From a virus (Duplodnaviria > Caudoviricetes), in IMG/VR virus record IMGVR_UViG_3300048080_000084, positions 1-39,606 of that record: 39,606 nucleotides of DNA; one strand, 5' to 3'. Shown here one piece after another: positions 1,386-39,606 of the stretch. A program made the translations under genes and the position numbers. Position 1 is the stretch's first letter, and each line of letters begins with the position of its first letter. Under the pieces are notes generated by a model. It did not search any database. It had not been told where the DNA came from and saw only the letters and a program-made list of their open reading frames with translations.

Positions 1386-2237
1386 GTGGCCAATGAACGT
1401 GGCAAACATCTCGATAAGACGCACCTCTCGATTGACCAAGCTGAAGCACGGGGATTCATTCACCGTGACTACATCGCACATTGCCTCAGATGGTCACACG
1501 TTGCTAAGCACCTACAGCAGCAGCATCGGTACAAGACCGCGTACGTACTCGACATCGGCTGTGGTAAGGAGGTTCCCCTTGCCAAGCTCATGTATTCCAG
1601 CCGCCTTATCCCGGAGACAGGCAAGTACGTAGGGATTGATGCCAACTATCTGACAGTGCCTGACATGTTCAAGACGGGTAAGTTCCCGATTGAGCTGTGG
1701 TCCCAGAAGACATTCCCCTGGTTAGAGCTCGAGGAGAAGTACTCCTTTGAGGTGGTCACGTGCTTCGAGGTGTGTGAGCATGTAGAACCGATGATGGCTC
1801 TTCAGATACTGCAGGGGATTCAGCGCATCCTTGATGACTCAGGCGCAGCATTCATCTCAACGCCTTGCTATGACGCACAAACAGGGGCGGCGGCGAATCA
1901 TGTGAATGAGATGAGCCATGCAGCCTTTGGCTCCATGATAGAGCGCTCAGGCCTCTTCATCGAGAACGTGTGGGGCACATTTGCCAGCATCAAGGACTAC
2001 AAGGATCAGTTGCAGGCTCTGGGCATGGACAAGATCTTTGACAGGCTCCGTGACTACTACGACTCGAATTACCTAGCCACGGTCTTTGCACCACTATTCC
2101 CGCACCTTGCACGTAACTGCCTATGGCAGGTGACCAAGCACGGTGGCGGCCCGGACAAGTATGAGCCCCTGTCAACCTATCATGAGGCAAGCAACTCATC
2201 ATCCGAACTTTGGACAGATTTTGTGAGGGCACTGTGA
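1386..2237 (+). CDS. Class I SAM-dependent methyltransferase (small-molecule type)
   Basis: SAM motif VLDIGCG, YVGID, and FEVVTCFEVCEHV ... ISTP. Start moved to GTG 1386, which follows AAGGAG. Confidence 0.85.
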   Translation: MANERGKHLDKTHLSIDQAEARGFIHRDYIAHCLRWSHVAKHLQQQHRYKTAYVLDIGCGKEVPLAKLMYSSRLIPETGKYVGIDANYLTVPDMFKTGKFPIELWSQKTFPWLELEEKYSFEVVTCFEVCEHVEPMMALQILQGIQRILDDSGAAFISTPCYDAQTGAAANHVNEMSHAAFGSMIERSGLFIENVWGTFASIKDYKDQLQALGMDKIFDRLRDYYDSNYLATVFAPLFPHLARNCLWQVTKHGGGPDKYEPLSTYHEASNSSSELWTDFVRAL

Positions 2238-2650
2238 CCATCTTTGATGTTGGTGACTTCCAACAGAAGTTTGAGATCCCCAGGCTTAGAAAGCCTGGGT
2301 TCTTGAGTCATGATGAGATGAAGTTCAGAATAAACTTCCTAAAAGAGGAGCTCAATGAATTCATCCAGGCCTACGGCAAGGCAGATCTGGAGGAGGCGCT
2401 TGACGCCCTCATTGACCTTGAGTACGTGCTCCTTGGCACTGCCATCTTGATGGGCTTCGCTGGACCTCCACCACTGGGGGCGAAGACAAAGCGAGGTACC
2501 ATCTGGAACGCCGCGTGGGAGCGTGTGCACAAGGCCAACATGAAGAAGGTAAAGGTCACAAAGATAGAGGACTCGAAGCGAGAATCATTGCTCGACATCA
2601 TCAAGCCTGAGGGTTGGAAACCACCTCAATTTAAGGATTTACTACAGTGA
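2234..2650 (+). CDS. MazG-like (PRA-PH type) all-alpha NTP pyrophosphohydrolase
   Basis: FRINFLKEELNEF...DALIDLEYV...VHKANMKK...IIKPEGWKPP; GTGA overlap with the upstream gene. Confidence 0.85.
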   Translation: MTIFDVGDFQQKFEIPRLRKPGFLSHDEMKFRINFLKEELNEFIQAYGKADLEEALDALIDLEYVLLGTAILMGFAGPPPLGAKTKRGTIWNAAWERVHKANMKKVKVTKIEDSKRESLLDIIKPEGWKPPQFKDLLQ

Positions 2651-2850
2651 TTGATTCAGTTACAAAGAAACAAATAGATGATATGTCGTACAAATCTATG
2701 CTTGAATTATGGAGACGTTCACCATTAGGACACTATATGTTTCAAGGAGAAATCGGAGAATATTACAGTAAAGTAATGAACAGAAAACGCAATGAAGTTG
2801 GAGCAGAGGCGCATACATTAGCATCAAAAGAAATAGGTTTTGATGCTTAA
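2647..2850 (+). CDS. Small hypothetical protein
   Basis: 67-aa ORF overlapping both neighbours; more AT-rich than its flanks. Confidence 0.7.
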   Translation: MIDSVTKKQIDDMSYKSMLELWRRSPLGHYMFQGEIGEYYSKVMNRKRNEVGAEAHTLASKEIGFDA

Positions 2851-3907
2851 AGGTCTTATCATCCTCGATGGCCCAGATGGGACGGGCAAAACCACCCTGG
2901 CACGTAAACTGTGCGAGTTTTACAATGCCCACTACCTGCACCTTACCCGTCGCTGGGTGAACAACATGTTTGAGTATAATACCGCGGCAGTTCATCATGC
3001 CATCCAATTAGCTGAGAAGCAATTAGTGGTTATCGACCGCCTCTGGATGTCTGAGCTGGTGTACTCCCGTGCCTTTCATGGCGGTACTAGGTTCCCGCAC
3101 ATGGGCCGACTGATACATCGCGTGGTCCAAAAGCATGGTGGCATCTACGTCATTTGCCTGGATGACGACATTAGTGAGTATAGGGAACGGTTCAAGTACC
3201 TCAAGAGCACACGGCAGGAGATGTATACCGACGGTGACATGGTCCATGTGCATTTCAATGACATGTATCATGGCATAGAAAGCTGTGGCATCGATGAGAT
3301 TGACAGGGAGTATGAGCCGGGCAAGGACTATCTCTCTGACATCGTAATGAATGGCGGCCTCAAGTCATGGCCTTGTGTTGAGAGGTACCGCATCACTGAG
3401 GAAGGCAAGACTGTCGTTAACTTCTGTGAGCGGCTAGTGCACCGCGTGCTGAAGCGCAGGGATGAGCAGTACCCGTACGCGCTGGGCACTACACAACACA
3501 ACTTCCTTGGCCATGTCGCTGATGCCAAGTACCTATTGATAGGTGACCGCTTGTCAACGGACAAGTATCGGGCCATTAGGTGGCCATTCCACTACTATAA
3601 GAACTGCTCCCTATTCTTGGCAGAGGCCATGTCTCATTTGCAACTGAATGAGGGTGACTTCTGCTGGACAAACATCAATGAGTCACTGGGTGATGAGATC
3701 ACGGTTAACATGTGCTATGAGATGTTTAAGCTTAAGCCTATCGTGATGGGGCAAGAGGCTGCAAAACACTACACGGAGATAGCGTGGCACCTACCTCGTC
3801 ACTACTACATAAACCACCCGCAGTGGTACAGGCGATTTGAACATAATAGCAGAAGACTTGAGGCTGACCTAAGGAGGGCAATTGCAATCTCCGCTGACCG
3901 CGAATAG
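2843..3907 (+). CDS. P-loop dNMP (thymidylate-kinase-like) kinase fused to a C-terminal uracil-DNA-glycosylase-like domain
   Basis: N-terminal IILDGPDGTGKTT and VVIDRLWMSELVY; C-terminal G...AKYLLIGD...PF...CSLFL...WTN...IVMGQEA...HPQW pattern. Confidence 0.75.
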   Translation: MLKGLIILDGPDGTGKTTLARKLCEFYNAHYLHLTRRWVNNMFEYNTAAVHHAIQLAEKQLVVIDRLWMSELVYSRAFHGGTRFPHMGRLIHRVVQKHGGIYVICLDDDISEYRERFKYLKSTRQEMYTDGDMVHVHFNDMYHGIESCGIDEIDREYEPGKDYLSDIVMNGGLKSWPCVERYRITEEGKTVVNFCERLVHRVLKRRDEQYPYALGTTQHNFLGHVADAKYLLIGDRLSTDKYRAIRWPFHYYKNCSLFLAEAMSHLQLNEGDFCWTNINESLGDEITVNMCYEMFKLKPIVMGQEAAKHYTEIAWHLPRHYYINHPQWYRRFEHNSRRLEADLRRAIAISADRE

Positions 3908-4703
3908 TGCTTGGGTGCGCTTGCTCCGTAAGATAGTTACGGAAGGTAGGCCATCATCTCCTCGCATGCAGCCAACCCTTGAGCTACTGGGCTTTAAGAG
4001 TGAAGTTGACATGCACTGGCCGATAGTCACCCTGGCCAAGCGCAAGCTGGGTTATAAGTTCATGTGCGCCGAGGCGTGGTGGATTCTCTCAGGTCAGAAT
4101 AGGGTGGCTGAGATAGCTAGGTTCTCAAAGGAGATAGCTAACTTCTCAGATGACGGCCTCTTCTTCTTTGGTGCCTATGGTCCGAGAATCGTGGATCAAC
4201 TACCTCACGTGATTCGCTGTCTGTCAACTGACAATAGCTCACGGCAGGCGGTTATCAACATCTGGCGAGAGAGCCCACCAATCTCGAAGGATATTCCCTG
4301 TACACTGAGCGTGCAGTTCATCATCAGGGATGGGCAGCTGGATTGCTTCGTGAACATGCGAAGCTCTGATGCGTGGCTCGGGGTGCCATATGACTGGTTC
4401 AACTTCTCTATGCTCAGTGGTGCCGTTTGTTTGCTACTTAAAAGTGTGATGAGCTATAACCTACGACTAGGCACCTTGCACTTCTATGCGGCAAGTCAGC
4501 ACTTATATGAGAAGAACTTTGAGATTGCACAGGACATTGTGCGAGATGAGGGAATGTCTCACCTGTGTGTATACGAAGCTTTCAATCCGTACAACTTTAT
4601 GAACTTTGAGCGGTTGCTTGAGCATCTTAGCATGCTGGCGCATGGGACAGGGGATGGGGCTTACCTAACAACTGAACTGAGGGACTACTATGCGCCCAAG
4701 TAA
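3882..4703 (+). CDS. Thymidylate-synthase-superfamily enzyme, probably dCMP-specific (hydroxy)methyltransferase
   Basis: AEAWWILSG, AYGPR, SRQAV, DIPCT, VNMRSSD, GVPYD (Asp at the Asn177-equivalent site), HLY; TTG start after AAGGAGG. Confidence 0.85.
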   Translation: MQSPLTANSAWVRLLRKIVTEGRPSSPRMQPTLELLGFKSEVDMHWPIVTLAKRKLGYKFMCAEAWWILSGQNRVAEIARFSKEIANFSDDGLFFFGAYGPRIVDQLPHVIRCLSTDNSSRQAVINIWRESPPISKDIPCTLSVQFIIRDGQLDCFVNMRSSDAWLGVPYDWFNFSMLSGAVCLLLKSVMSYNLRLGTLHFYAASQHLYEKNFEIAQDIVRDEGMSHLCVYEAFNPYNFMNFERLLEHLSMLAHGTGDGAYLTTELRDYYAPK

Positions 4704-5127
4704 GGACACGATGCTTCTTAGCATGGCGGGATTGTTAGGGCAGCTAGGCACGTGCTTTCGCCGTAAGGTAGGTTGTATCCTTGTCAACAAGCATTGGCAC
4801 ATCATTGGTTCAGGCTACAATGGGGTAGCTAAGGGTGAGCCGCACTGCAGTGAGAGCCCTTGTCCAGGGGCACAGTGTGAGAGTGGACAAGGCCTAGAAC
4901 TTTGTGAGGCCATTCATGCTGAGCAGAATGCGCTACTTCAATGTCGCGACGTGCAAGAGATAGCTATTTGCTATGTAACTACCTCGCCCTGCGTACATTG
5001 CGTAAAGCTTCTGATGAACACTGGTTGTCATACGATCTATTTTCTAAATGAGTATGCGGATGTTAAGCAAGCCAAGCAACTCTGGTGTAATGGCTGGAGA
5101 GACTGGATTCAGCATGGCGGACAATAA
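4690..5127 (+). CDS. dCMP deaminase family protein
   Basis: TCFRRKVGC, GYNG, HAEQNA, SPCVHC zinc motifs. Confidence 0.92.
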   Translation: MRPSKDTMLLSMAGLLGQLGTCFRRKVGCILVNKHWHIIGSGYNGVAKGEPHCSESPCPGAQCESGQGLELCEAIHAEQNALLQCRDVQEIAICYVTTSPCVHCVKLLMNTGCHTIYFLNEYADVKQAKQLWCNGWRDWIQHGGQ

Positions 5128-6985
5128 GTACATCCCAGCCTCTGTCAATGACCTGCCCTCACTTAAGGGCGAGCCGCTCATTGCCATTGACTGTGAAACG
5201 AGAGACCCTAACCTTATGACGTTAGGTCCAGGAGGTGCCCGTGGAGATGGCTATGTCGTCGGAGTCTCCTTTGCTACGGCTAATCATGAGTATTATCTGC
5301 CTACACATCATGAAGGGGGAGGCAACCTGGAAATGGATAGCGTCGTCCGATGGCTTAGGGACAACCTTGCAGGTCCTGAACCTAAGGTTGGAGCTAATGT
5401 TATCTATGACCTTGAGTGGCTCAGAGCTACTGGTATTCAAGTCGGAGGCAGATGCTATGATGTCCAAGTTGCTGAGCCCCTCCTCGACGAAAACAAGCTC
5501 TCCTACAGACTCGAAGTCCTTGCCCGACAATACTGTGGGATAGGCAAGGATGAGAGCAAACTGACTGAGATGTGTATGTCCAAGCTAGGTATCAAAGAAA
5601 GGGAGGTGAAGGCAAACCTATGGAGATTGCACGCTGAGGATGTTGCACAGTACGGAGCCATGGATGCTCGTCTGACCTATGACATCTTCATGCAGCAAGA
5701 ACCAAGGATAGATAAGGAAGGTCTTCGTGAAGTATTTGAGATGGAAACAGAACTAACACAAGTCCTGCTGGCCATGAGATTTCAAGGTGTTAGGGTGAAC
5801 CTTGACAAGGCTGACAGGGTACGAAAGGAGATGTATGCGGCACAAGAAAAGGCGCAGGAACAACTTGATCAAATTGCATCCGGCAATCGTGTTGATGTTT
5901 GGTCGGGCGAAAGCATCGAAGCTACGTGCAAAGCTCTTGGCATTACTTATGGAAGAACTGAGAAAGGCAACCCTTCTTTTGAAGGAGAATGGTTAGAGAA
6001 CCACGAGCATCTGGCAATGCAACTAATCTCCCGCATTCGGAAATTAGACCGAAGCGGGGGAATCTTTATTGAGAAAAAAATCTTGGAGGTACAGCATGGC
6101 GGACGAATTTTCCCGACTTTTAGACAGGTGCGAAGCGATGACGGGGGCACACGCACAGGCCGATTTGCTTCCGCTAATCCTAACATGCAGCAAATACCCG
6201 CCAGAGACCCTATTGTGTCGGGACTCATTAGAGGTATATTCGTCCCTGATCCAGGGCGAAGTTGGGGCGTGTTTGACTATAATCAACAGGAGCCCAGGGT
6301 CACCGTACACTATGCGGCTTTATGTGATTATCGAGGAGCATCAGAAGCCGTCGATAGGTATGTTCGAGAGCCTGAAACTGATTATCATGGGATGGTGGCA
6401 GAGATGGCAGGCATCTCGCGAAAGGACGCAAAGACCCTTAACCTTGGCCTCGCGTACGGAATGGGAAAAGCGAAGATGGCTGTACAACTTGGGATGACCA
6501 TGCGCGAGTGCATGGAGATCTATGACAAGTATCATAGCAGCGTGCCATATATGAAACAGCTTGGTGACCACTGCATGCGGTTGGCGCAGGAGCGTGGGTA
6601 TATCAAGACGTTGTTAGGACGTAAACGCCGATTCAACCTCTATGGCCCAGTCAAGTGGTCCGCTGGCATGCAGCCATTACCTAAGGAGGATGCGCTTCGT
6701 GAGTTCGGTCCACCAGTGGTGCCTTATTTCTGTCACAAGGCAATGAACTCCCTGATCCAGGGTAGTTCAGCTGACATGATCAAGAAGGCAATGCTTGACC
6801 TCTTCAAGGAGGGGATTGTGCCTCACATAACTATTCACGATGAGCTTGACATCTCGGTTGACGGCCCTGAGCAAGCGAAGAAGGTCAGTGAGATAATGAG
6901 CAACTGTGTACAACTCAAGGTGCCACTTAAAGTGGATTGTGAACTCGGCCCATCATGGGGTGAGGTAGTGGAGGTAAAGCTGTGA
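5114..6985 (+). CDS. polA: DNA polymerase family A with 3'-5' exonuclease
   Basis: Exonuclease motifs AIDCET, NVIYDL, YGAMDA; TRTGRFASANPNMQQIP; DYNQQEPR; KTLNLGLAYGMG; IQGSSAD; HDEL. Probable start ATG 5114. Confidence 0.95.
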   Translation: MADNKYIPASVNDLPSLKGEPLIAIDCETRDPNLMTLGPGGARGDGYVVGVSFATANHEYYLPTHHEGGGNLEMDSVVRWLRDNLAGPEPKVGANVIYDLEWLRATGIQVGGRCYDVQVAEPLLDENKLSYRLEVLARQYCGIGKDESKLTEMCMSKLGIKEREVKANLWRLHAEDVAQYGAMDARLTYDIFMQQEPRIDKEGLREVFEMETELTQVLLAMRFQGVRVNLDKADRVRKEMYAAQEKAQEQLDQIASGNRVDVWSGESIEATCKALGITYGRTEKGNPSFEGEWLENHEHLAMQLISRIRKLDRSGGIFIEKKILEVQHGGRIFPTFRQVRSDDGGTRTGRFASANPNMQQIPARDPIVSGLIRGIFVPDPGRSWGVFDYNQQEPRVTVHYAALCDYRGASEAVDRYVREPETDYHGMVAEMAGISRKDAKTLNLGLAYGMGKAKMAVQLGMTMRECMEIYDKYHSSVPYMKQLGDHCMRLAQERGYIKTLLGRKRRFNLYGPVKWSAGMQPLPKEDALREFGPPVVPYFCHKAMNSLIQGSSADMIKKAMLDLFKEGIVPHITIHDELDISVDGPEQAKKVSEIMSNCVQLKVPLKVDCELGPSWGEVVEVKL

Positions 6986-7580: not shown

Positions 7581-7875
7581 GGTCTACGTAGTGCAGGAGG
7601 TACAGGGGAAGAACATCCTGCCAGCGAAGCAGTATGGCAGCTTTGTGTTCATCCTGCCATATGGGCAGGTGCCTATGGAGACAGAGGCTACGGTGGCCTT
7701 GATGAAGGCGGCGATGGTTGACTTCAGCACCGAGGACTATATCCTCGCCATTGGGGATCCTGTAGCTATTGGCATGGCCTGTTCAATAGCCTCATTCAGA
7801 ACAAAAGGAAACTTTCAGATTCTCAAGTGGGACCGGCAAGAGCACGAGTACCACCCCTGGAGGATAAGGCTGTGA
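7573..7875 (+). CDS. Phage hypothetical protein (alpha/beta)
   Basis: MAKVYVVQE...DYILAIGDP...LKWDRQ; start at ATG 7573 overlapping the previous stop. Confidence 0.7.
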   Translation: MAKVYVVQEVQGKNILPAKQYGSFVFILPYGQVPMETEATVALMKAAMVDFSTEDYILAIGDPVAIGMACSIASFRTKGNFQILKWDRQEHEYHPWRIRL

Positions 7876-8108
7876 GGGAAAAGCGTGTAGTTACAATGGC
7901 CTACTGGGCTATTGCCAAGGAGATAGTGGCCAAGAATCCCGCCATTAAGAACGGCATGATCCCTGACCTTATACACAAGGTGATCAAAAAATATAAGGAG
8001 GAAAGAAACATTGAAATTATTTTGACAGATAAACCTGGTAAGATAATCCGTCACCCCAACGGTAAGTCCTACATGATAGGAAACCGAGGAGATTTCAAAC
8101 AAATATGA
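7872..8108 (+). CDS. Small basic hypothetical protein
   Basis: Fills the gap with 4-nt overlaps (GTGA, ATGA) at both ends. Confidence 0.6.
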   Translation: MREKRVVTMAYWAIAKEIVAKNPAIKNGMIPDLIHKVIKKYKEERNIEIILTDKPGKIIRHPNGKSYMIGNRGDFKQI

Positions 8109-8647
8109 TTGACTTCAGCCAAGACACACAGGCACCCACTGATGATAAACTCGTAAAGGTGGCATCTCTGGCAACTGAGATGACGAACCTTGAAGAGGTG
8201 ATAGAGAAGCGAGAGGCAGACCTTGAGAGCCTCAAGGAGTCATACAAGAAGATTCAGGAATACTCCCTACCAGAGGCCATGGCTGAGGTAGGCATCGCTG
8301 AATTCAAACTCAACAATGGGGCCAAGGTCAGCGTGAAGAACTTCTATGCAGGGAAGATTGATGACGAGAACCGCGGTCCGTGCTTCGGGTGGCTCCGCAG
8401 CAATGGCCATGACTCGCTCATCAAACATGAGATGAACGTATCACTAGGGAAAGGAGATGACGAGGTAGCGAAACAAATCGCGGAATTCTTGAAAGAGCTT
8501 GGAATGACCTACACGGACAAGGAGAGCGTGCACTATCAAACCCTGTCAGCGTTCATACGTGAGCAGGTGGAGGCAGGCACAACCTTCCCCATGGAGTTGT
8601 TCAAGGCATATGTCGGTCGTAAAGCAAAAGTCACTCAACCAAAATAG
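8105..8647 (+). CDS. Replication-module protein of unknown function (coiled-coil N-terminus)
   Basis: LPEAMAEVG...WLRSNGHDSLIK...VHYQTLSAFIREQ; lies directly before the SSB-like gene. Confidence 0.75.
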   Translation: MIDFSQDTQAPTDDKLVKVASLATEMTNLEEVIEKREADLESLKESYKKIQEYSLPEAMAEVGIAEFKLNNGAKVSVKNFYAGKIDDENRGPCFGWLRSNGHDSLIKHEMNVSLGKGDDEVAKQIAEFLKELGMTYTDKESVHYQTLSAFIREQVEAGTTFPMELFKAYVGRKAKVTQPK

Positions 8648-8656
8648 GAGAAACAC

Positions 8657-9448
8657 ATGGCTAAGGACGTAGCAGAAAAGAAAGGTACTGACATCACGGT
8701 CCTGGACTCAGGGATGATGATGCAGGACTCGGCAATTGGCTTCACTGGTGTGGACATGAAGGATGTCGCCATCCCATACGTGGCAATCCTACAGGCGCTC
8801 TCGCCACAGGTCAAGAAGGGCGCTCAAAAGGTCGAAGGCGCTGAGGAAGGAGACATCTTCAACAATGTCACCGGCCGCGTTGTCAAGGGAAGCAAGGGCC
8901 TCATGGTCATCCCCTGTGCGTACCAGAAGCGATACGTGGAGTGGAATGACAGGGATAAGGGTGGGGGCTTTGTCAAGGCTCACACCGACGAGCGCATCCT
9001 GGAAAAGACCAGCAAGAACGAGAAGAACCAGGACGTGATGCAAGGCAATAGCCACCTCATCGTGACCACGGCCTACCACTTCTGTGTGATCCTAAACGAG
9101 GATGGCACGTTCGAGCGGGTGGTCATCCCCATGTCCAGCACGCAACTCAAGAAGTCCCGCAAGTGGAACGCCATTATGATGGGGCTTCAGTTGGCCAAGC
9201 CCTCGGGTGGCGTCTACACGCCGCCGCCATTCAGCCACAGCTATCCGCTGACCACCATCCAGGAGGTCAAGGACAAGAACACGTGGTATGGGTGGAATAT
9301 CGGCAATCCGAAGCAAATCACGAACGTGGACATTTACCAATATGCCCGGCACCTCTCAGTAGAGGTGAACAAGGGTCTGGTGGATGTGACGCCGCAGCAA
9401 GCATCGGAACCGGACGCAACACCAGAAGCAAGCGGAAAACACTTCTAA
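8657..9448 (+). CDS. Putative ssDNA-binding/annealing protein
   Basis: LQALSPQV, YVEW, MSSTQLKKSRKWN, WYGW; strong RBS (AGGAG), biased codon use, and position before the primase. Function is inferred. Confidence 0.55.
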   Translation: MAKDVAEKKGTDITVLDSGMMMQDSAIGFTGVDMKDVAIPYVAILQALSPQVKKGAQKVEGAEEGDIFNNVTGRVVKGSKGLMVIPCAYQKRYVEWNDRDKGGGFVKAHTDERILEKTSKNEKNQDVMQGNSHLIVTTAYHFCVILNEDGTFERVVIPMSSTQLKKSRKWNAIMMGLQLAKPSGGVYTPPPFSHSYPLTTIQEVKDKNTWYGWNIGNPKQITNVDIYQYARHLSVEVNKGLVDVTPQQASEPDATPEASGKHF

Positions 9449-9463
9449 CGTCGAGGGTCAAGG

Positions 9464-9495
9464 AGCCTCTCCCGGGATAGCTGGGGGAGGCTTTT
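9464..9495 (+). terminator. GC-rich hairpin (terminator/attenuator) overlapping the primase RBS
   Basis: AGCCTCTCCCGG-gatag-CTGGGGGAGGCT-TTT. Confidence 0.6.
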
Positions 9496-9498
9496 CCC

Positions 9499-11019
9499 AT
9501 GTCTACTGCAGCTCGACTATTGGCGCTTTTTAATGGGTTGCATAGAGCCTATGGCATTTACCGGATCGTAACCACAAAGGACGAGGGGCCGAAGCTAGTT
9601 GGCAACACGTCAAGCATCAAGACCGTGCGTGGTGAGGTCAATGAGGAGCTCTGGACCAAGCACCTAGAGGGTAGCCAGGGCTTGGGGATTATCCCGATTC
9701 GTGATGATAATACCGTGGTTTTCGGCGCCATTGACATTGACGTCTATGAGGGGCTCGACTACGCGGCGATTTCCAGGAAGATCAAAGAGTTCAAGTTACC
9801 GCTAGTACCATGTCGCTCAAAGTCAGGCGGTGTTCATTGCTACATGTTCACAAAGGAACCAGTACCAGCGAAGCTAGTACAGTCGAAGCTTACAGAGTTT
9901 GCCGCGGCACTCGGGCATGGTGGCGTTGAGATTTTCCCAAAGCAAACGGAGATTATCGCCGAGAAGGGGGATGTTGGTCAGTGGATTAACATGCCCTACT
10001 TCAATGAGAAAGAGACCACTCGGTATGGGCTAACTATTGACGGCTCACCAATGACTTGTGACGCGTTCTTAGAATACGCGGAAGTAATGAAAATTGACCT
10101 TATAACATTAAAAGGTCTACGGGTCATATCACAAGACAAGCTCAATGATGGACCACCATGCCTTCAGCACCTAATCACCATTGGGTTCCCCCCTGGTACC
10201 AGAAACGATGGCCTCTTTAACATCGCCGTGTACCTGCGCAAAGCAAACCCTGAAACCTGGGAGAAAGATATTTATGAGTACAACAAGCTCTACCTGCGAC
10301 CACCCCTTACACCAGACGAAGTTGAGGGAGTTACTAAGTCTGCAAAACGAAAAGAATATCTCTACACCTGTTCTAAACCTCCTATCAAACCATACTGCAA
10401 TTCAGGCCTATGTAGGACAAGAAAGCATGGGATCGGAATCTTGCAAGGTATGCCAGTTATTACAGGTCTTACTAAGTTCGACTCCCGTCCACCTATCTGG
10501 TTTGCAGATATTGAGGGTGGAGGTAGACTTGAGCTTACTACAGAAGATCTACAGAACCAATTAAGGTTCCAGAAGAGTTGCATGGACGCCTTGAACTCAA
10601 TGCCTGCCACAATGAAGCCAAGTATCTGGAATACCATGATCTCTGCGCTATTGGAGAAGGTCAACATTGTAGAGGCACCTCCTGAAGCTAGCCCAGTGGG
10701 CCAGTTGATGCTTCACCTTGAAACATTCTGCACGTCACGGGCGCAGGCCAAGTCTAAGGATGAGTTATTGCTTGGTAAACCTTTCTTGGAAGAATCTCGT
10801 CACTACTTTCGCTTAAACGACTTCACACAATATCTGGACAGACTGCACTTTCGGCTCTTTAACCCTGCACAGGTAGCCTCGGTGCTACGAGACACTGGCG
10901 GGGAACATAAGTTCTTTAACCTTAAGGGTAGGGGAATCAACTGCTTCTCTTACCCTGAATTCAAACGTCAAACAGAGGTGCACGAGATTCCTGACTATAA
11001 GGATAAGGATGCTTTCTAA
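9499..11019 (+). CDS. Primase (AEP/prim-pol-like with PriCT-like domain)
   Basis: GAIDID, RSKSGGVH, EIFPKQ, INMPYF, PPCL, GTRNDGLF. Confidence 0.8.
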   Translation: MSTAARLLALFNGLHRAYGIYRIVTTKDEGPKLVGNTSSIKTVRGEVNEELWTKHLEGSQGLGIIPIRDDNTVVFGAIDIDVYEGLDYAAISRKIKEFKLPLVPCRSKSGGVHCYMFTKEPVPAKLVQSKLTEFAAALGHGGVEIFPKQTEIIAEKGDVGQWINMPYFNEKETTRYGLTIDGSPMTCDAFLEYAEVMKIDLITLKGLRVISQDKLNDGPPCLQHLITIGFPPGTRNDGLFNIAVYLRKANPETWEKDIYEYNKLYLRPPLTPDEVEGVTKSAKRKEYLYTCSKPPIKPYCNSGLCRTRKHGIGILQGMPVITGLTKFDSRPPIWFADIEGGGRLELTTEDLQNQLRFQKSCMDALNSMPATMKPSIWNTMISALLEKVNIVEAPPEASPVGQLMLHLETFCTSRAQAKSKDELLLGKPFLEESRHYFRLNDFTQYLDRLHFRLFNPAQVASVLRDTGGEHKFFNLKGRGINCFSYPEFKRQTEVHEIPDYKDKDAF

Positions 11020-12496
11020 GGTTAACATTATCCTCGGACCGCCAGGCACTGGCAAGACTACGAGATTACTCAACCTCGTTGATGAGTACCTGTCTAAGGG
11101 GACAAGGCCAGATAAGATCGCCTTCATCTCATTCACGAAGCGCGCCACAGAGGAGGCACGTGACAGGGCGAAGGCAAGGTTTAAGTTAAGCTCCGAGGAC
11201 CTCGAATACTTCCGCACCATCCACTCCCTGGCATTCAAGCAGCTGGGGCTATCAACAGGCTCAGTGATCAAGTGGTCAAACTATAAGGAGTTCGGGCGAG
11301 ACGTAGGCATTGAGATCACTGGGAGACAGAACTCAGATGACGGCACCATGGCACAAATATCCAAGGGTGACCGCCTCATCTTCATAGAGCAGCTGGCAAG
11401 GCTGCAGTGCCGGCCACTCAAGGAGGTGTGGGAAGAGGCCAGGGATGATGAGATTACTTGGTGGGAGATTGACCAGGTAAGTCGCGCCTTTCAGAAGTAT
11501 AAGCAGGTGAATGCTTTGATAGATTACACGGACATGCTCACCCGCATGTATGAGTCGGGGTTCATTCCAAAGTTTGACGTGGTCATCGTGGATGAGGCCC
11601 AGGACCTAAGTCAACTGCAGTGGAAGATTGTACAGCGGCTCATTGACAGCAGTGAGGTTGCGTATGTCGCAGGTGATGATGACCAAGCAATATTCAGATG
11701 GTCAGGGGCGGACATTGAGCACTTCATAGGGCTACAGGGAAATGTAACAGTCCTAGAACAGAGCTACAGGCTCCCTAAGGTCGTGCATGAGCTCGCCGTT
11801 GGGATTACTAAGGGCATAGAGAAACGGCGTGAGAAACGATTTAATTCGAGGGATTTTAATGGGTATATACATTGGATGAATTATATCGAAGACTTAAATC
11901 TTGCACAAGGCAACTGGCTACTACTAGCCAGGAACTCATACCATGTGAAGAATCTGGCTGAAAACTGCAAGAATCTGGGTGTTTTCTATTCGTTTCGGGA
12001 CGCAGGCATGGACAAGAACGAGGCACTTTTGGCGGCTAGATGTTGGCAGCGACTGCTCAAAGGGAGCACCGAAAGCGCCGGTGAAATTAAGAATATATTT
12101 TTACACATGCACCACAAACCTGAGTTACGACTCTTAAAGATGCAGGAGAAGTGGTCTCTGGATGATTTGGACAAGGGGCTGCTGATAAGGAACCGAGGTC
12201 CGTGGCACGAGGTGCTAGATGCCATGCGCGTGGAGGACAGTGAAAGTATCAAGGCAATGCTGCGCCGTGGTGAAAAGCTTCAAGAGCCCCCGCGCGTGCG
12301 CATCTCAACCATCCATGGCGCCAAGGGGGCTGAGGCAGACAACGTGGCCTTGTTCACTGACGTCTCATACCGCACCTTCCAGGGGATGCAGACAAACCCT
12401 GATGACGAGGCCCGGGTGTTCTATGTCGGAGTCACTAGGGCGAAGGAAAGCCTGTGTATCATGAACCCGCAAACTGATAAATATTACCAACTGTGA
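11009..12496 (+). CDS. Superfamily 1 UvrD/Rep-like helicase
   Basis: GPPGTGKT, TIHSL, VDEAQD, GDDDQAI, QSYR, STIHGAKGAE, YVGVTRAK. Confidence 0.93.
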   Translation: MLSKVNIILGPPGTGKTTRLLNLVDEYLSKGTRPDKIAFISFTKRATEEARDRAKARFKLSSEDLEYFRTIHSLAFKQLGLSTGSVIKWSNYKEFGRDVGIEITGRQNSDDGTMAQISKGDRLIFIEQLARLQCRPLKEVWEEARDDEITWWEIDQVSRAFQKYKQVNALIDYTDMLTRMYESGFIPKFDVVIVDEAQDLSQLQWKIVQRLIDSSEVAYVAGDDDQAIFRWSGADIEHFIGLQGNVTVLEQSYRLPKVVHELAVGITKGIEKRREKRFNSRDFNGYIHWMNYIEDLNLAQGNWLLLARNSYHVKNLAENCKNLGVFYSFRDAGMDKNEALLAARCWQRLLKGSTESAGEIKNIFLHMHHKPELRLLKMQEKWSLDDLDKGLLIRNRGPWHEVLDAMRVEDSESIKAMLRRGEKLQEPPRVRISTIHGAKGAEADNVALFTDVSYRTFQGMQTNPDDEARVFYVGVTRAKESLCIMNPQTDKYYQL

Positions 12497-12502
12497 GGTG
12501 CT

Positions 12503-13897
12503 ATGTTTAAGACAATACCCTACAAGCACCAACTGGAGGCCTATGAGCGGTCCAAGGACCTCGAAGCGTTTGCCCTCTTCATGGAGATGGGCACTGGCAA
12601 ATCTAAAGTTATTGTCGACACTATGTGTCATCTGTTTACTACCGGGAAGATTGAGCGCGTCCTTATCTTCGCGAACAAGGGCTCTTATAGAAACTGGGCA
12701 GATACCCAACTACCTGAACACTTCTGGGAGGACCCGGAGGGGGATATCTCCGTTTGGGGACTTAATGGGGTGGTTAACCAGAAAGATCCTAAAAAGCTCT
12801 ACATTCTAGTCATGAACATTGAGGCCATCGCCTATGCCAGGGGATACGACTTCGCTGATAGTTTTATCCTGAACGATCGTACGCTCATCGTGGCAGATGA
12901 GTCGACCACCATCAAGAACCTCGACGCGAAGCGAACCAAGGCCGCCATCGCCTTAGCCAAGCAGTGTAGGTACCGGCGCATCATGACAGGGGAGCCAATC
13001 ACAAACTCACCCCTGGACCTCTATGCACAATGCCAGTTCCTAGGTAGTGGGCTGCTGGGATATACTAGCTACTACGCGTTCAGGGCGTACTATGCAAACA
13101 TGATACAAATAAGCGCAGGTGGCAGGTCATTTCGCAAGGTCACAGGATATAGGAACCTAGATAAGCTAACCAACAGCCTTAGCTACTTTAGCTATAGGAT
13201 TAAGAAAGAACAGTGCCTTGACCTACCGCCAAAGATCTATCAAACCTATGAGGTGGAGTTGACCGATGAACAACAAAAGCTATATGAGCAAATACGTGAA
13301 GATTCTATTGCTGAGCTTAGCAATCTGGTTGTTACTGCGCCTCTGGCCATTACTAAGATAATAAGGCTGCATCAGATAACTTGCGGCTTTATTAAGTCAG
13401 AGGATGGCCAGATAAAGGACCTTGATAGCCACCGACTTGAGAGGCTGCTAGAGGTCATTGAAGAGACCGATGGTTCAGTGATAATCTGGGCAAGTTATCG
13501 ACACAATATAGAAAGTATTACTAGTAAATTATCGAGTATATATGGCTCGAATTGTGTCGCTACCTATTATGGTGATACAACGGCTGAGGATCGGTCAATC
13601 GGGGTTCAAAATTTTCAAAATTTTAATGCCAGGTTCTTTGTTGGGAACCCAAAAACGGGTGGTTTTGGGCTTACCTTGACAGCCGCAAGTACCGTGGTAT
13701 ACTACTCGAACGATTACAATCTGGAAACTAGACTACAAAGCGAGGACCGAGCACATCGCATCGGTCAAACTAAGTCCGTAAACTACGTTGACTTGGTTGC
13801 CAGAGGCACGGTAGATGAGAAGATTATCAAGGCCTTACGTAGTAAGAAACAAGTAGCCTCCACCGTCTTGGGAGACGAGTGGAGGCAGTGGATTTGA
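12503..13897 (+). CDS. Superfamily 2 SNF2-like helicase
   Basis: MEMGTGKS, DESTTIKN, TGEP, GGFGLTLT, QSEDRAHRIGQ. Confidence 0.93.
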   Translation: MFKTIPYKHQLEAYERSKDLEAFALFMEMGTGKSKVIVDTMCHLFTTGKIERVLIFANKGSYRNWADTQLPEHFWEDPEGDISVWGLNGVVNQKDPKKLYILVMNIEAIAYARGYDFADSFILNDRTLIVADESTTIKNLDAKRTKAAIALAKQCRYRRIMTGEPITNSPLDLYAQCQFLGSGLLGYTSYYAFRAYYANMIQISAGGRSFRKVTGYRNLDKLTNSLSYFSYRIKKEQCLDLPPKIYQTYEVELTDEQQKLYEQIREDSIAELSNLVVTAPLAITKIIRLHQITCGFIKSEDGQIKDLDSHRLERLLEVIEETDGSVIIWASYRHNIESITSKLSSIYGSNCVATYYGDTTAEDRSIGVQNFQNFNARFFVGNPKTGGFGLTLTAASTVVYYSNDYNLETRLQSEDRAHRIGQTKSVNYVDLVARGTVDEKIIKALRSKKQVASTVLGDEWRQWI

Positions 13898-39224: not shown

Positions 39225-39518
39225 ATGAAGACAGTGTCAAAGAAACAAGCAAATCGATTCTGGAAAGTTGGTAACAAGTACTTCATTCGCACGGTCACAA
39301 ACTATTATGTTGGTGAGCTTGCGCGTGAGGAAGAGGACCAAGTCATCCTGAAGAAAGCCGCATGGGTTGCAGACACAGGGCGCTTTGCTGACTTCCTCAA
39401 GACCGGTAACGCCAATGAGGTGGAGCCCTACCCTGACAATATCGAGGTTGCGGTGCCTAAGACAGGGGTGATTGACGCCAGTCAATGGTCACACACCCTG
39501 CCAATGAGTCAAAAATGA
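39225..39518 (+). CDS. Small beta-rich protein (possible Sm/SH3-like barrel)
   Basis: KYFIRTVTNYYVGEL...VILKKAAWVADTGRF...EVEPYP; GAAAGGA RBS. Confidence 0.75.
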   Translation: MKTVSKKQANRFWKVGNKYFIRTVTNYYVGELAREEEDQVILKKAAWVADTGRFADFLKTGNANEVEPYPDNIEVAVPKTGVIDASQWSHTLPMSQK

Positions 39519-39606
39519 TTCAAGTAATCAAGCGACTAGGGTATGAAAACTCGTGGTCGTGGTCGTGGTCGTGGTCGGGGTCGCGGTCGGGGTCGCGGTC
39601 GGGGTC
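39515..39606 (+). CDS. 5' part of the Ser-Trp/Ser-Gly/Ser-Arg repeat peptide (continues at position 1)
   Basis: ATGA overlap with the upstream stop; MIQVIKRLGYEN-SWSWSWSWSGSRSGSRSG..., repeat begins at 39551. Confidence 0.7.
   Translation, partial: MIQVIKRLGYENSWSWSWSWSGSRSGSRSG

Follow-up and report, generated by a model that had tools for sequence, protein, structure and literature searches.

The stretch of DNA considered here, hereafter the window, is the whole of the 39,606-base IMG/VR virus record IMGVR_UViG_3300048080_000084 (Duplodnaviria; Caudoviricetes), and the question raised by the gene run at positions 1386-6985 is why a set of nucleotide-metabolism genes ending in a DNA polymerase should be headed by an S-adenosylmethionine (SAM) methyltransferase. 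Behind the methyltransferase follow a pyrophosphohydrolase, a small open reading frame (ORF), a kinase, a thymidylate synthase (TS) homolog, a deaminase, and PolA, and the association is not a chance one, because the order of TS, kinase, pyrophosphatase, deaminase, and methyltransferase genes is found again in dozens of viral contigs. We predict, with a confidence a little better than even, that cytosine in this phage is replaced by 5-hydroxymethylcytosine (5hmC), which is then O-methylated to 5-methoxymethylcytosine. The two halves of this prediction differ in strength: the TS homolog very probably produces 5-hydroxymethyl-dCMP (5hm-dCMP), as judged from its active-site signature, and, given that product, it is reasonably likely from the genetic linkage and the predicted metal site that the methyltransferase caps the 5hmC hydroxyl.

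The TS homolog (3882..4703, plus strand; PF00303) was aligned with the E. coli ThyA, T4 gp42, Xp12, and RB69 gp48 sequences taken from their records, and its residues D137, C140, T141, D163, and D171 fall on ThyA positions 143, 146, 147, 169, and 177. At positions 143/169/177, the window reads D/D/D, as does T4 gp42, compared to L/D/N in ThyA, N/D/D in Xp12, and E/N/D in RB69 gp48, and the D/D/D signature is present in 87/87 aligned TS homologs (the window plus 6 GenBank and 80 viral loci). According to published work, specificity for dCMP comes from Asp177, an acidic 143 is the mark of enzymes with non-methyl products, and D169N that of the hydroxylases, having been found in all of those tested (PMC13326640); Asp145 of the T4 enzyme, the counterpart of ThyA 143, is required for hydroxymethylation, and Ser94 is also named in the signature (PMC6400193). 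In the window, D171 provides the cytosine-selecting Asp, and D137-I-P-C140 places an Asp three residues before the catalytic Cys. The Asn177 and His147 of canonical ThyA are replaced by Asp and Thr, the D169N of 5-hydroxy-dCMP synthases of the RB69 gp48 type is absent from 87/87 sequences, and the non-acidic position 143 of 5-methyl-dCMP synthases, Asn in Xp12, is likewise lacking. A 5-hydroxymethyl product is preferred over a 5-hydroxy or 5-methyl one because the Asp before the catalytic Cys and Asp169 are both kept. Arg126 and Ser167 (in the motifs SSRQ and RSSD) are the residues of deoxyribose selectivity (PMC5175136), with Lys and Ala in their place in the CMP hydroxymethylase MilA. MilA is the best solved-structure match of the TS homolog (E 2e-20), which scores below all NCBIfam cut-offs. 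The initial annotation, made from the DNA alone, had described the overlapping seven-gene run, quoted the TS motifs DIPCTLSVQFIIRD, VNMRSSD, and GVPYD, and proposed a dCMP-type enzyme feeding a C5-modified cytosine; the run is real, all three motifs are present, and the D/D/D signature supports the proposed type of base. Among related phages, the cultured pelagiphages HTVC200P and HTVC119P (L005 and L006) and 14 T7-like contigs carry a minimal pair of kinase and D/D/D TS genes, and plain 5hmC is predicted in the DNA of the pelagiphages, while a T7-like marine phage (AP013540, L088:4236-5435) has a Leu143/Asp177 TS of the 5-methyl type together with a deaminase 53% identical to that of the window.

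The methyltransferase gene (1386..2237, plus strand) begins with a GTG start after GGAG in a frame open from 1359, and its residues are numbered here from the TTG at 1359. The protein matches PF13489 (E 9e-12), and its AlphaFold model (pLDDT 93) shows a class I Rossmann fold, for which Foldseek and VIA return a generic class I match with no standout substrate. In profile comparisons, UbiG is the best family match (E 4e-6), Hen1 structures match at E 3e-4 to 1e-3, and HHalign against ten bacterial Hen1 proteins gives a probability of 95%. Residues R44, E137, E140, H141, T168-P169, H181, and E184 align on the Hen1 motifs HxxR, EVIEH, TP, and HxxE, so that counterparts of the ligands E796, E799, H800, and H860, of R701, and of the TP pair are all apparently matched. 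These residues are invariant, except for T168, in 95/95 and 11/11 methyltransferase sequences, and ExxEH is present in 149/150 family representatives. In Hen1, the two Glu and two His residues hold a Mg that binds the substrate hydroxyls (PMC10781085, PMC1397878); a metal site of this type would therefore favor O-methylation of a hydroxyl over N- or C-methylation of a base, and the protein is predicted to be a hydroxyl O-methyltransferase with a Hen1/UbiG-type metal site. It is, however, neither a Hen1 nor a UbiG, as identity to both is about 20% and far below the family cut-offs: for TIGR04074 (Hen1), the window protein is not listed and the homolog from phage AXL3 scores 28 bits vs 340, for TIGR01983 (UbiG), the score is 33 bits vs 103, the Hen1 N-terminal domain and Pnkp partner are lacking, and the family has extra conserved motifs of its own (HRD..AH..RW, GTFAS, YYD.N, and P..ARN). 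The initial annotation had seen no catalytic motifs of DNA methyltransferases, which holds, since the motif IV position reads FEVCEH rather than the PC or (D/N/S)PP(Y/F) of C5, N4, and N6 base methyltransferases, and no DNA-methylase family matches. Most members of the family are acidic proteins (median net charge -6), which mildly favors a nucleotide substrate. Its relatives number 1,423 at 90% clustering, 361 clusters at 50% identity have E below 1e-30, viral sequences make up 95-100% of each of the ten feature-based atlas clusters listed for it, and in viral contigs an alignment query gave 367 matches where a single-sequence scan gave 0.

The linkage of this methyltransferase to Asp-type TS genes, which the initial annotation had suggested checking, is confirmed in relatives from both directions, with counts that overstate the number of independent events because many loci are near-duplicates. 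Starting from the TS, 52/87 loci, window included, carry the methyltransferase (L084, with a weak match to another methyltransferase, was left out), and of the 34 loci without it, 6 are cut off upstream, 16 are T7-like, 6 have a glycosyltransferase-like gene and 1 a carbamoyltransferase, and the other 5 are unexplained. Starting from the methyltransferase, an Asp-type TS is present in 67/69 loci that extend 3.5 kb or more downstream (of 93 loci), both exceptions having such a TS elsewhere in the same record or genome. The same holds for 71/71 testable loci (of 80, all one close lineage) on a distant branch around L181, and for 14/16 on a third branch, where one exception is a fragment and the other is L300. 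In GenBank, five records representing four distinct phages have the methyltransferase, and this TS adjoins it in each. The partner TS genes are only 27-56% identical to that of the window, lie on separate branches (of a quick tree with long branches, used only for the spread of partners), and occur in differing gene orders, and the link therefore follows the TS type rather than one inherited block. In L181 (9306-10112) and L205, a phage SAM synthetase gene lies between the methyltransferase and TS genes; as support for bulk methylation, it was given little weight, being found in just these two records.

What stands in the place of the methyltransferase in other phages is also informative. The order in Xp15 and L074 is carbamoyltransferase, pyrophosphatase, kinase, TS, and deaminase, with the carbamoyltransferase, a class that acts on the 5hmC hydroxyl (PMC8670742), sitting where the methyltransferase would be. 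In a whole-record search of 50 records picked from 71, none of the 40 methyltransferase carriers (a set that includes 27 IMG/VR records of 90% completeness or more) had a carbamoyltransferase, a member of the glycosyltransferase-like family, or PF00534, one having a PF00535 match below the cutoff at a distance of about 17 kb, compared to 5 of the 10 non-carriers with a carbamoyltransferase or glycosyltransferase-like gene (Fisher p 1e-4, a value inflated by relatedness and by a glycosyltransferase-like profile built from its own positives). As initially annotated, no glycosyltransferase was found in the window. Strict mutual exclusion of the methyltransferase and glycosyltransferases was considered and rejected: it is true in the 40 records and is broken by the fusion protein P0268 and by L291. 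The glycosyltransferase-like family itself, of 340-350 amino acids, has no Pfam match, is recognized as such by language-model features only, and sits in or near the same cassette (L038:4383-5420, L072, L084, L042:8982-10010, and L062:2655-3668). In L038, L072, and L084, it accompanies a different Methyltransf_23 protein in which, as checked in L038, the ExxEH motif is without its first Glu, L038 also has a sugar epimerase, and these three sets are candidates for a methylated-sugar modification.

Several relatives of the methyltransferase are joined to other enzymes. Six of the best 150 representatives (P0242, P0245, P0254, P0255, P0262, and P0265) are fused to a C5-DNA-methyltransferase-like domain, two of these fusions carrying an intein with a LAGLIDADG domain, and such a domain is fused to or adjoins the methyltransferase at L294:7980-9899, L034:3306-4340, and L302:8759-10294; its presence in phages with an Asp-type TS would be odd if all cytosine were already substituted. 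At L305, two methyltransferase paralogs (3836-4573 and 7716-8693) flank a block of C5-methyltransferase-like, kinase, and TS genes beside ThyX. By sequence, P0201 is an apparent fusion of a deoxynucleoside monophosphate (dNMP) kinase, in a part without a Pfam match, to the methyltransferase, and its many Trp residues at Gly positions suggest a phage that reads TGA as Gly.

Among cultured phages, AXL3 has the methyltransferase, pyrophosphatase, kinase, TS, and deaminase in the order of the window, and a ThyX of its own besides. Only 2/37 enzymes, TasI and Tru1I, both with A/T-only sites, are reported to cut its DNA, so that AATT and TTAA are cleaved and G/C-containing sites resist (PMC7504290). 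KpnI (13 sites) and the XmnI isoschizomer PdmI (21 sites) are among those that failed, and in a reference panel (PMC7653180 supplement), KpnI fully cuts DNA with 5-methylcytosine (5mC) or 5-hydroxymethyluracil (5hmU), and XmnI cuts 5hmC DNA partially and glucosylated DNA not at all. These digests argue against plain 5mC or 5hmU and weakly hint at more than 5hmC. The AXL3 genome (L185) is also strongly depleted in A/T-only palindromes (AATT 13, TTAA 14, ATAT 3, and TATA 2 vs about 54 each), a pattern shared by Xp12 and weak in the window, where palindrome avoidance is weak except for GATC (z -5).

Taken as a pathway, the pyrophosphatase would break dCTP down to dCMP, the TS homolog would convert dCMP and methylene-tetrahydrofolate to 5hm-dCMP, the kinase and PolA would bring 5-hydroxymethyl-deoxycytidine (5hm-dC) into DNA, and the methyltransferase, with bound metal and SAM, would cap the CH2OH group in the role played elsewhere by glucosyl- and carbamoyltransferases. 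Capping at the nucleotide or single-strand stage is mildly preferred over capping of duplex DNA, because of the acidic character and small-molecule fold of the methyltransferase. The deaminase may divert some dCMP to dUMP for the host thymidylate synthase, like T4 cd, and the uracil-DNA glycosylase (UDG)-fold domain of the kinase may clear uracil-type bases. The modification would likely block ordinary restriction enzymes and perhaps also those that read a free hydroxymethyl group.

Several observations weigh against this pathway. At the site of T4 Ser94, expected to be Ser or Thr, the TS homolog has Gly, two residues before Tyr in FFGAYG, throughout its clade (the methyltransferase-linked TS of L181 reads NSNYG in this region), and it would therefore be an enzyme that works like gp42 without being its ortholog. 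The metal of Hen1 holds two neighboring hydroxyls where 5hmC offers one, and a sugar would suit the site better. Fold searches single out no substrate, with CmoM, ChlM, MfnG, RebM, and HEN1 all at Z 16-18. T7-like pelagiphages retain TS and kinase without the methyltransferase, which is therefore not needed for the TS step, and the carrier G170 (L300/L309) has a distant, Xp12-like TS with Asn143. The near-duplication of loci and the circular glycosyltransferase-like profile pull in the same direction, as do P0268, in which the methyltransferase is fused to the glycosyltransferase-like family, and L291, where it lies beside a glycosyltransferase-like gene and a UDP-galactopyranose mutase. Finally, the AXL3 digests allow no confident split between 5hmC and a capped form, as vendors and isoschizomers differ from the reference panel.

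Of the alternatives, the one that survives best, while still unlikely, is that the DNA contains plain 5hmC and that the target of the methyltransferase lies elsewhere, for example in RNA 3' ends, as for Hen1, or in a side-product ribonucleotide. The closest characterized active site is that of an RNA 2'-O-methyltransferase, and the TS-only pelagiphages and the carrier with a distant Asn143 TS also speak for this reading; yet the methyltransferase accompanies Asp-type TS genes through different lineages and gene orders, even where one TS has been replaced by another, no Pnkp partner is annotated in the loci examined, and the PdmI result for AXL3 hints at more than 5hmC. Next, and also improbable, is a glycosylated 5hmC whose sugar is O-methylated, with a glycosyltransferase that is unrecognized or absent from a record estimated to be 70% complete. 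The chelation of vicinal diols by Hen1-type sites, together with P0268 and L291, speaks for such a sugar, and the count of 0/40 carriers with a glycosyltransferase-like family or PF00534, along with the window itself, speaks against it.

The remaining alternatives concern the base itself. It is quite improbable that the TS homolog is a dCMP hydroxylase whose product the methyltransferase turns into 5-methoxycytosine: a 5-hydroxy pyrimidine is catechol-like and would suit a UbiG-type metal site, UbiG being the best family match, and MilA-like homologs include hydroxylases, but the hydroxylases tested were all D169N (PMC13326640), and the window and 86/86 homologs keep Asp. The suggestion in the initial annotation that the methyltransferase might O-methylate the primary product stands as the leading idea, on the strength of the predicted Hen1-type metal site, with its 5-hydroxymethyl variant retained and its 5-hydroxy variant disfavored. 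Its other suggestion, a bypass in which 5-methyl-dCMP made by the TS is partly turned into thymidine nucleotides by the deaminase, the methyltransferase being unrelated, has already been published as the Xp12 route with 5mC-selective deaminases (mSCD; bioRxiv 2024.12.05.627091), and for this locus it is very improbable. TS, PRA-PH, deaminase, and PolA do form the neighborhood described for these deaminases, the deaminase of the window is 53% identical to one beside a Leu143/Asp177 TS, and no ThyX was found in the window; however, position 143 is Asp and not Asn or Leu, AXL3 resists KpnI and Eam1105I where KpnI and AhdI cut 5mC DNA, and, as a weak point, searches of the window and of 50 related records gave no dihydrofolate reductase (DHFR), an enzyme that Xp12 encodes next to its TS. 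There is a still slimmer chance that the deaminase converts 5hm-dC nucleotides to 5-hydroxymethyl-deoxyuridine (5hm-dU), which the methyltransferase caps so that thymidine is partly replaced; related deaminases act on 5hm-dC (bioRxiv 2024.12.05.627091), and O4 with CH2OH could chelate a metal, but in AXL3 DNA the AATT and TTAA sites are cleaved while sites containing G/C resist, and several carrier loci showed no deaminase. Least probable of all is an ordinary supply of dTMP (dCMP to dUMP to dTMP to dTDP), the annotation given in the papers on AXL3 and PW916. The gene names fit it, but the TS has Asp177 and Thr147, and AXL3 encodes ThyX separately and has DNA that resists restriction.

The preferred pathway, through 5hmC to 5-methoxymethylcytosine, shares its logic and its Asp143/Asp169/Asp177 TS with the T4 5hmC pathway (gp56 dCTPase, gp42, gp1 dNMP kinase, cd, and alpha/beta-glucosyltransferases). 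Unlike T4, the window has a TS of a MilA-like clade, a MazG-like pyrophosphatase, a thymidylate-type kinase with a UDG fold, PolA, and, in the predicted role of the glucosyltransferases, a SAM methyltransferase. The 5hmC carbamoyltransferase cassette (Yang et al. 2021, PMC8670742; Xp15 and L074) is ordered in the same way, starting with a transferase that modifies the hydroxyl, and the L074 TS is 46% identical to that of the window; the cap is carbamoyl there and predicted to be methyl here. Xp12 shares the neighborhood and Asp177 and differs in its Asn143, its adjacent DHFR, and a deaminase just 28% identical, and the 5-hydroxy-dCMP synthases of RB69, DLP3, and RL38J1 share Asp177 and an acidic 143 but have D169N and a flavin (PMC13326640). 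The core neighborhood of TS, kinase, PRA-PH, deaminase, and PolA is already known, the set of TS, PRA-PH, deaminase, and PolA having been reported for contigs with modified cytosine (bioRxiv 2024.12.05.627091, PMC8670742), and the new part is the predicted methyltransferase step. In the literature searched, which was mostly open-access, no description of 5-methoxymethylcytosine as a DNA base was found; passages of PMC13229309 place O-methyltransferases near phage dioxygenases and give no product there. We lean modestly toward the view that a virus-centered Hen1-type O-methyltransferase family, of 361 clusters at 50% identity, makes this base genome-wide. If so, methyl would be a third cap for 5hmC beside sugars and carbamoyl, the DNA alphabet of phages would gain an undescribed base, spread over several lineages of podo- and siphoviruses, and the unexplained restriction resistance of AXL3, a cultured therapy candidate, would be accounted for. 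A Hen1-type metal site would also have been put to use on a nucleobase substituent, and a SAM-dependent enzyme acting directly on the 5hmC hydroxyl could become a tool for labeling 5hmC with SAM analogues.

All seven genes of the run lie on the plus strand, and neighbors overlap by 4 to 26 bases. The all-alpha, MazG/PRA-PH-like nucleoside triphosphate pyrophosphohydrolase (2234..2650; PF01503 E 4e-10, phrog_671) probably acts as a dCTPase, to judge from T4 gp56, and would eliminate unmodified dCTP; in distant branches it is replaced by a dUTPase-fold gene, of the trimeric type around L181. The 67-amino-acid ORF that follows (2647..2850) is coupled on both sides, has no Pfam or PHROG match and no homolog in 86 related loci, and is accessory and not conserved. 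The dNMP (thymidylate-type) P-loop kinase (2843..3907; phrog_761, TIGR00041) ends in a family-4 UDG-fold domain, the UDG call of the initial annotation being right: Pfam UDG matches 10/36 aligned homologous C-termini, among which three columns are invariant, and the top Foldseek matches of the model are the family-4 UDGs 1ui1 and 1vk2 (E 2e-4 to 5e-4, TM about 0.6). The Zn-dependent dCMP/dCTP-type deaminase (4690..5127; HAE...PCxxC, PF00383 E 8e-17) is 49% identical to that of Xp15 and 28% identical to that of Xp12. PolA (5114..6985; PF00476, PF01612) is a family A DNA polymerase with a 3'-5' exonuclease and would incorporate the modified dCTP; in a cassette-bearing phage, a 5-hmdU DNA kinase helical-domain protein (PF18723) is encoded downstream of PolA (L034:9977-10894). 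The complete 107-kb phage of L291 has the methyltransferase, dimeric dUTPase-like, glycosyltransferase-like, UDP-galactopyranose mutase, and C5-methyltransferase-like genes in one run (7950-12614).

The gene run forms the start of the replication arm, with an amidase gene immediately before it, and the window also has coat and portal genes of the P22 type, along with replication genes that are Pam3-like. Its DNA is present in one public run, a sediment metagenome, in which 24/29 strain differences in the methyltransferase gene fall at third codon positions, and no RNA dataset is listed as containing the region of the gene run. A promoter scan was uninformative (13 sites vs 8.4 +/- 2.5 in shuffles), as were terminators (3 vs 5.2). 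The record is classed as linear, and a search of the window for exact terminal repeats gave none; both of its ends (39485-39606 and 1-57) lie inside a low-complexity Ser/Trp/Arg/Gly repeat gene, which suggests that the contig broke there and may be near complete despite the completeness estimate.

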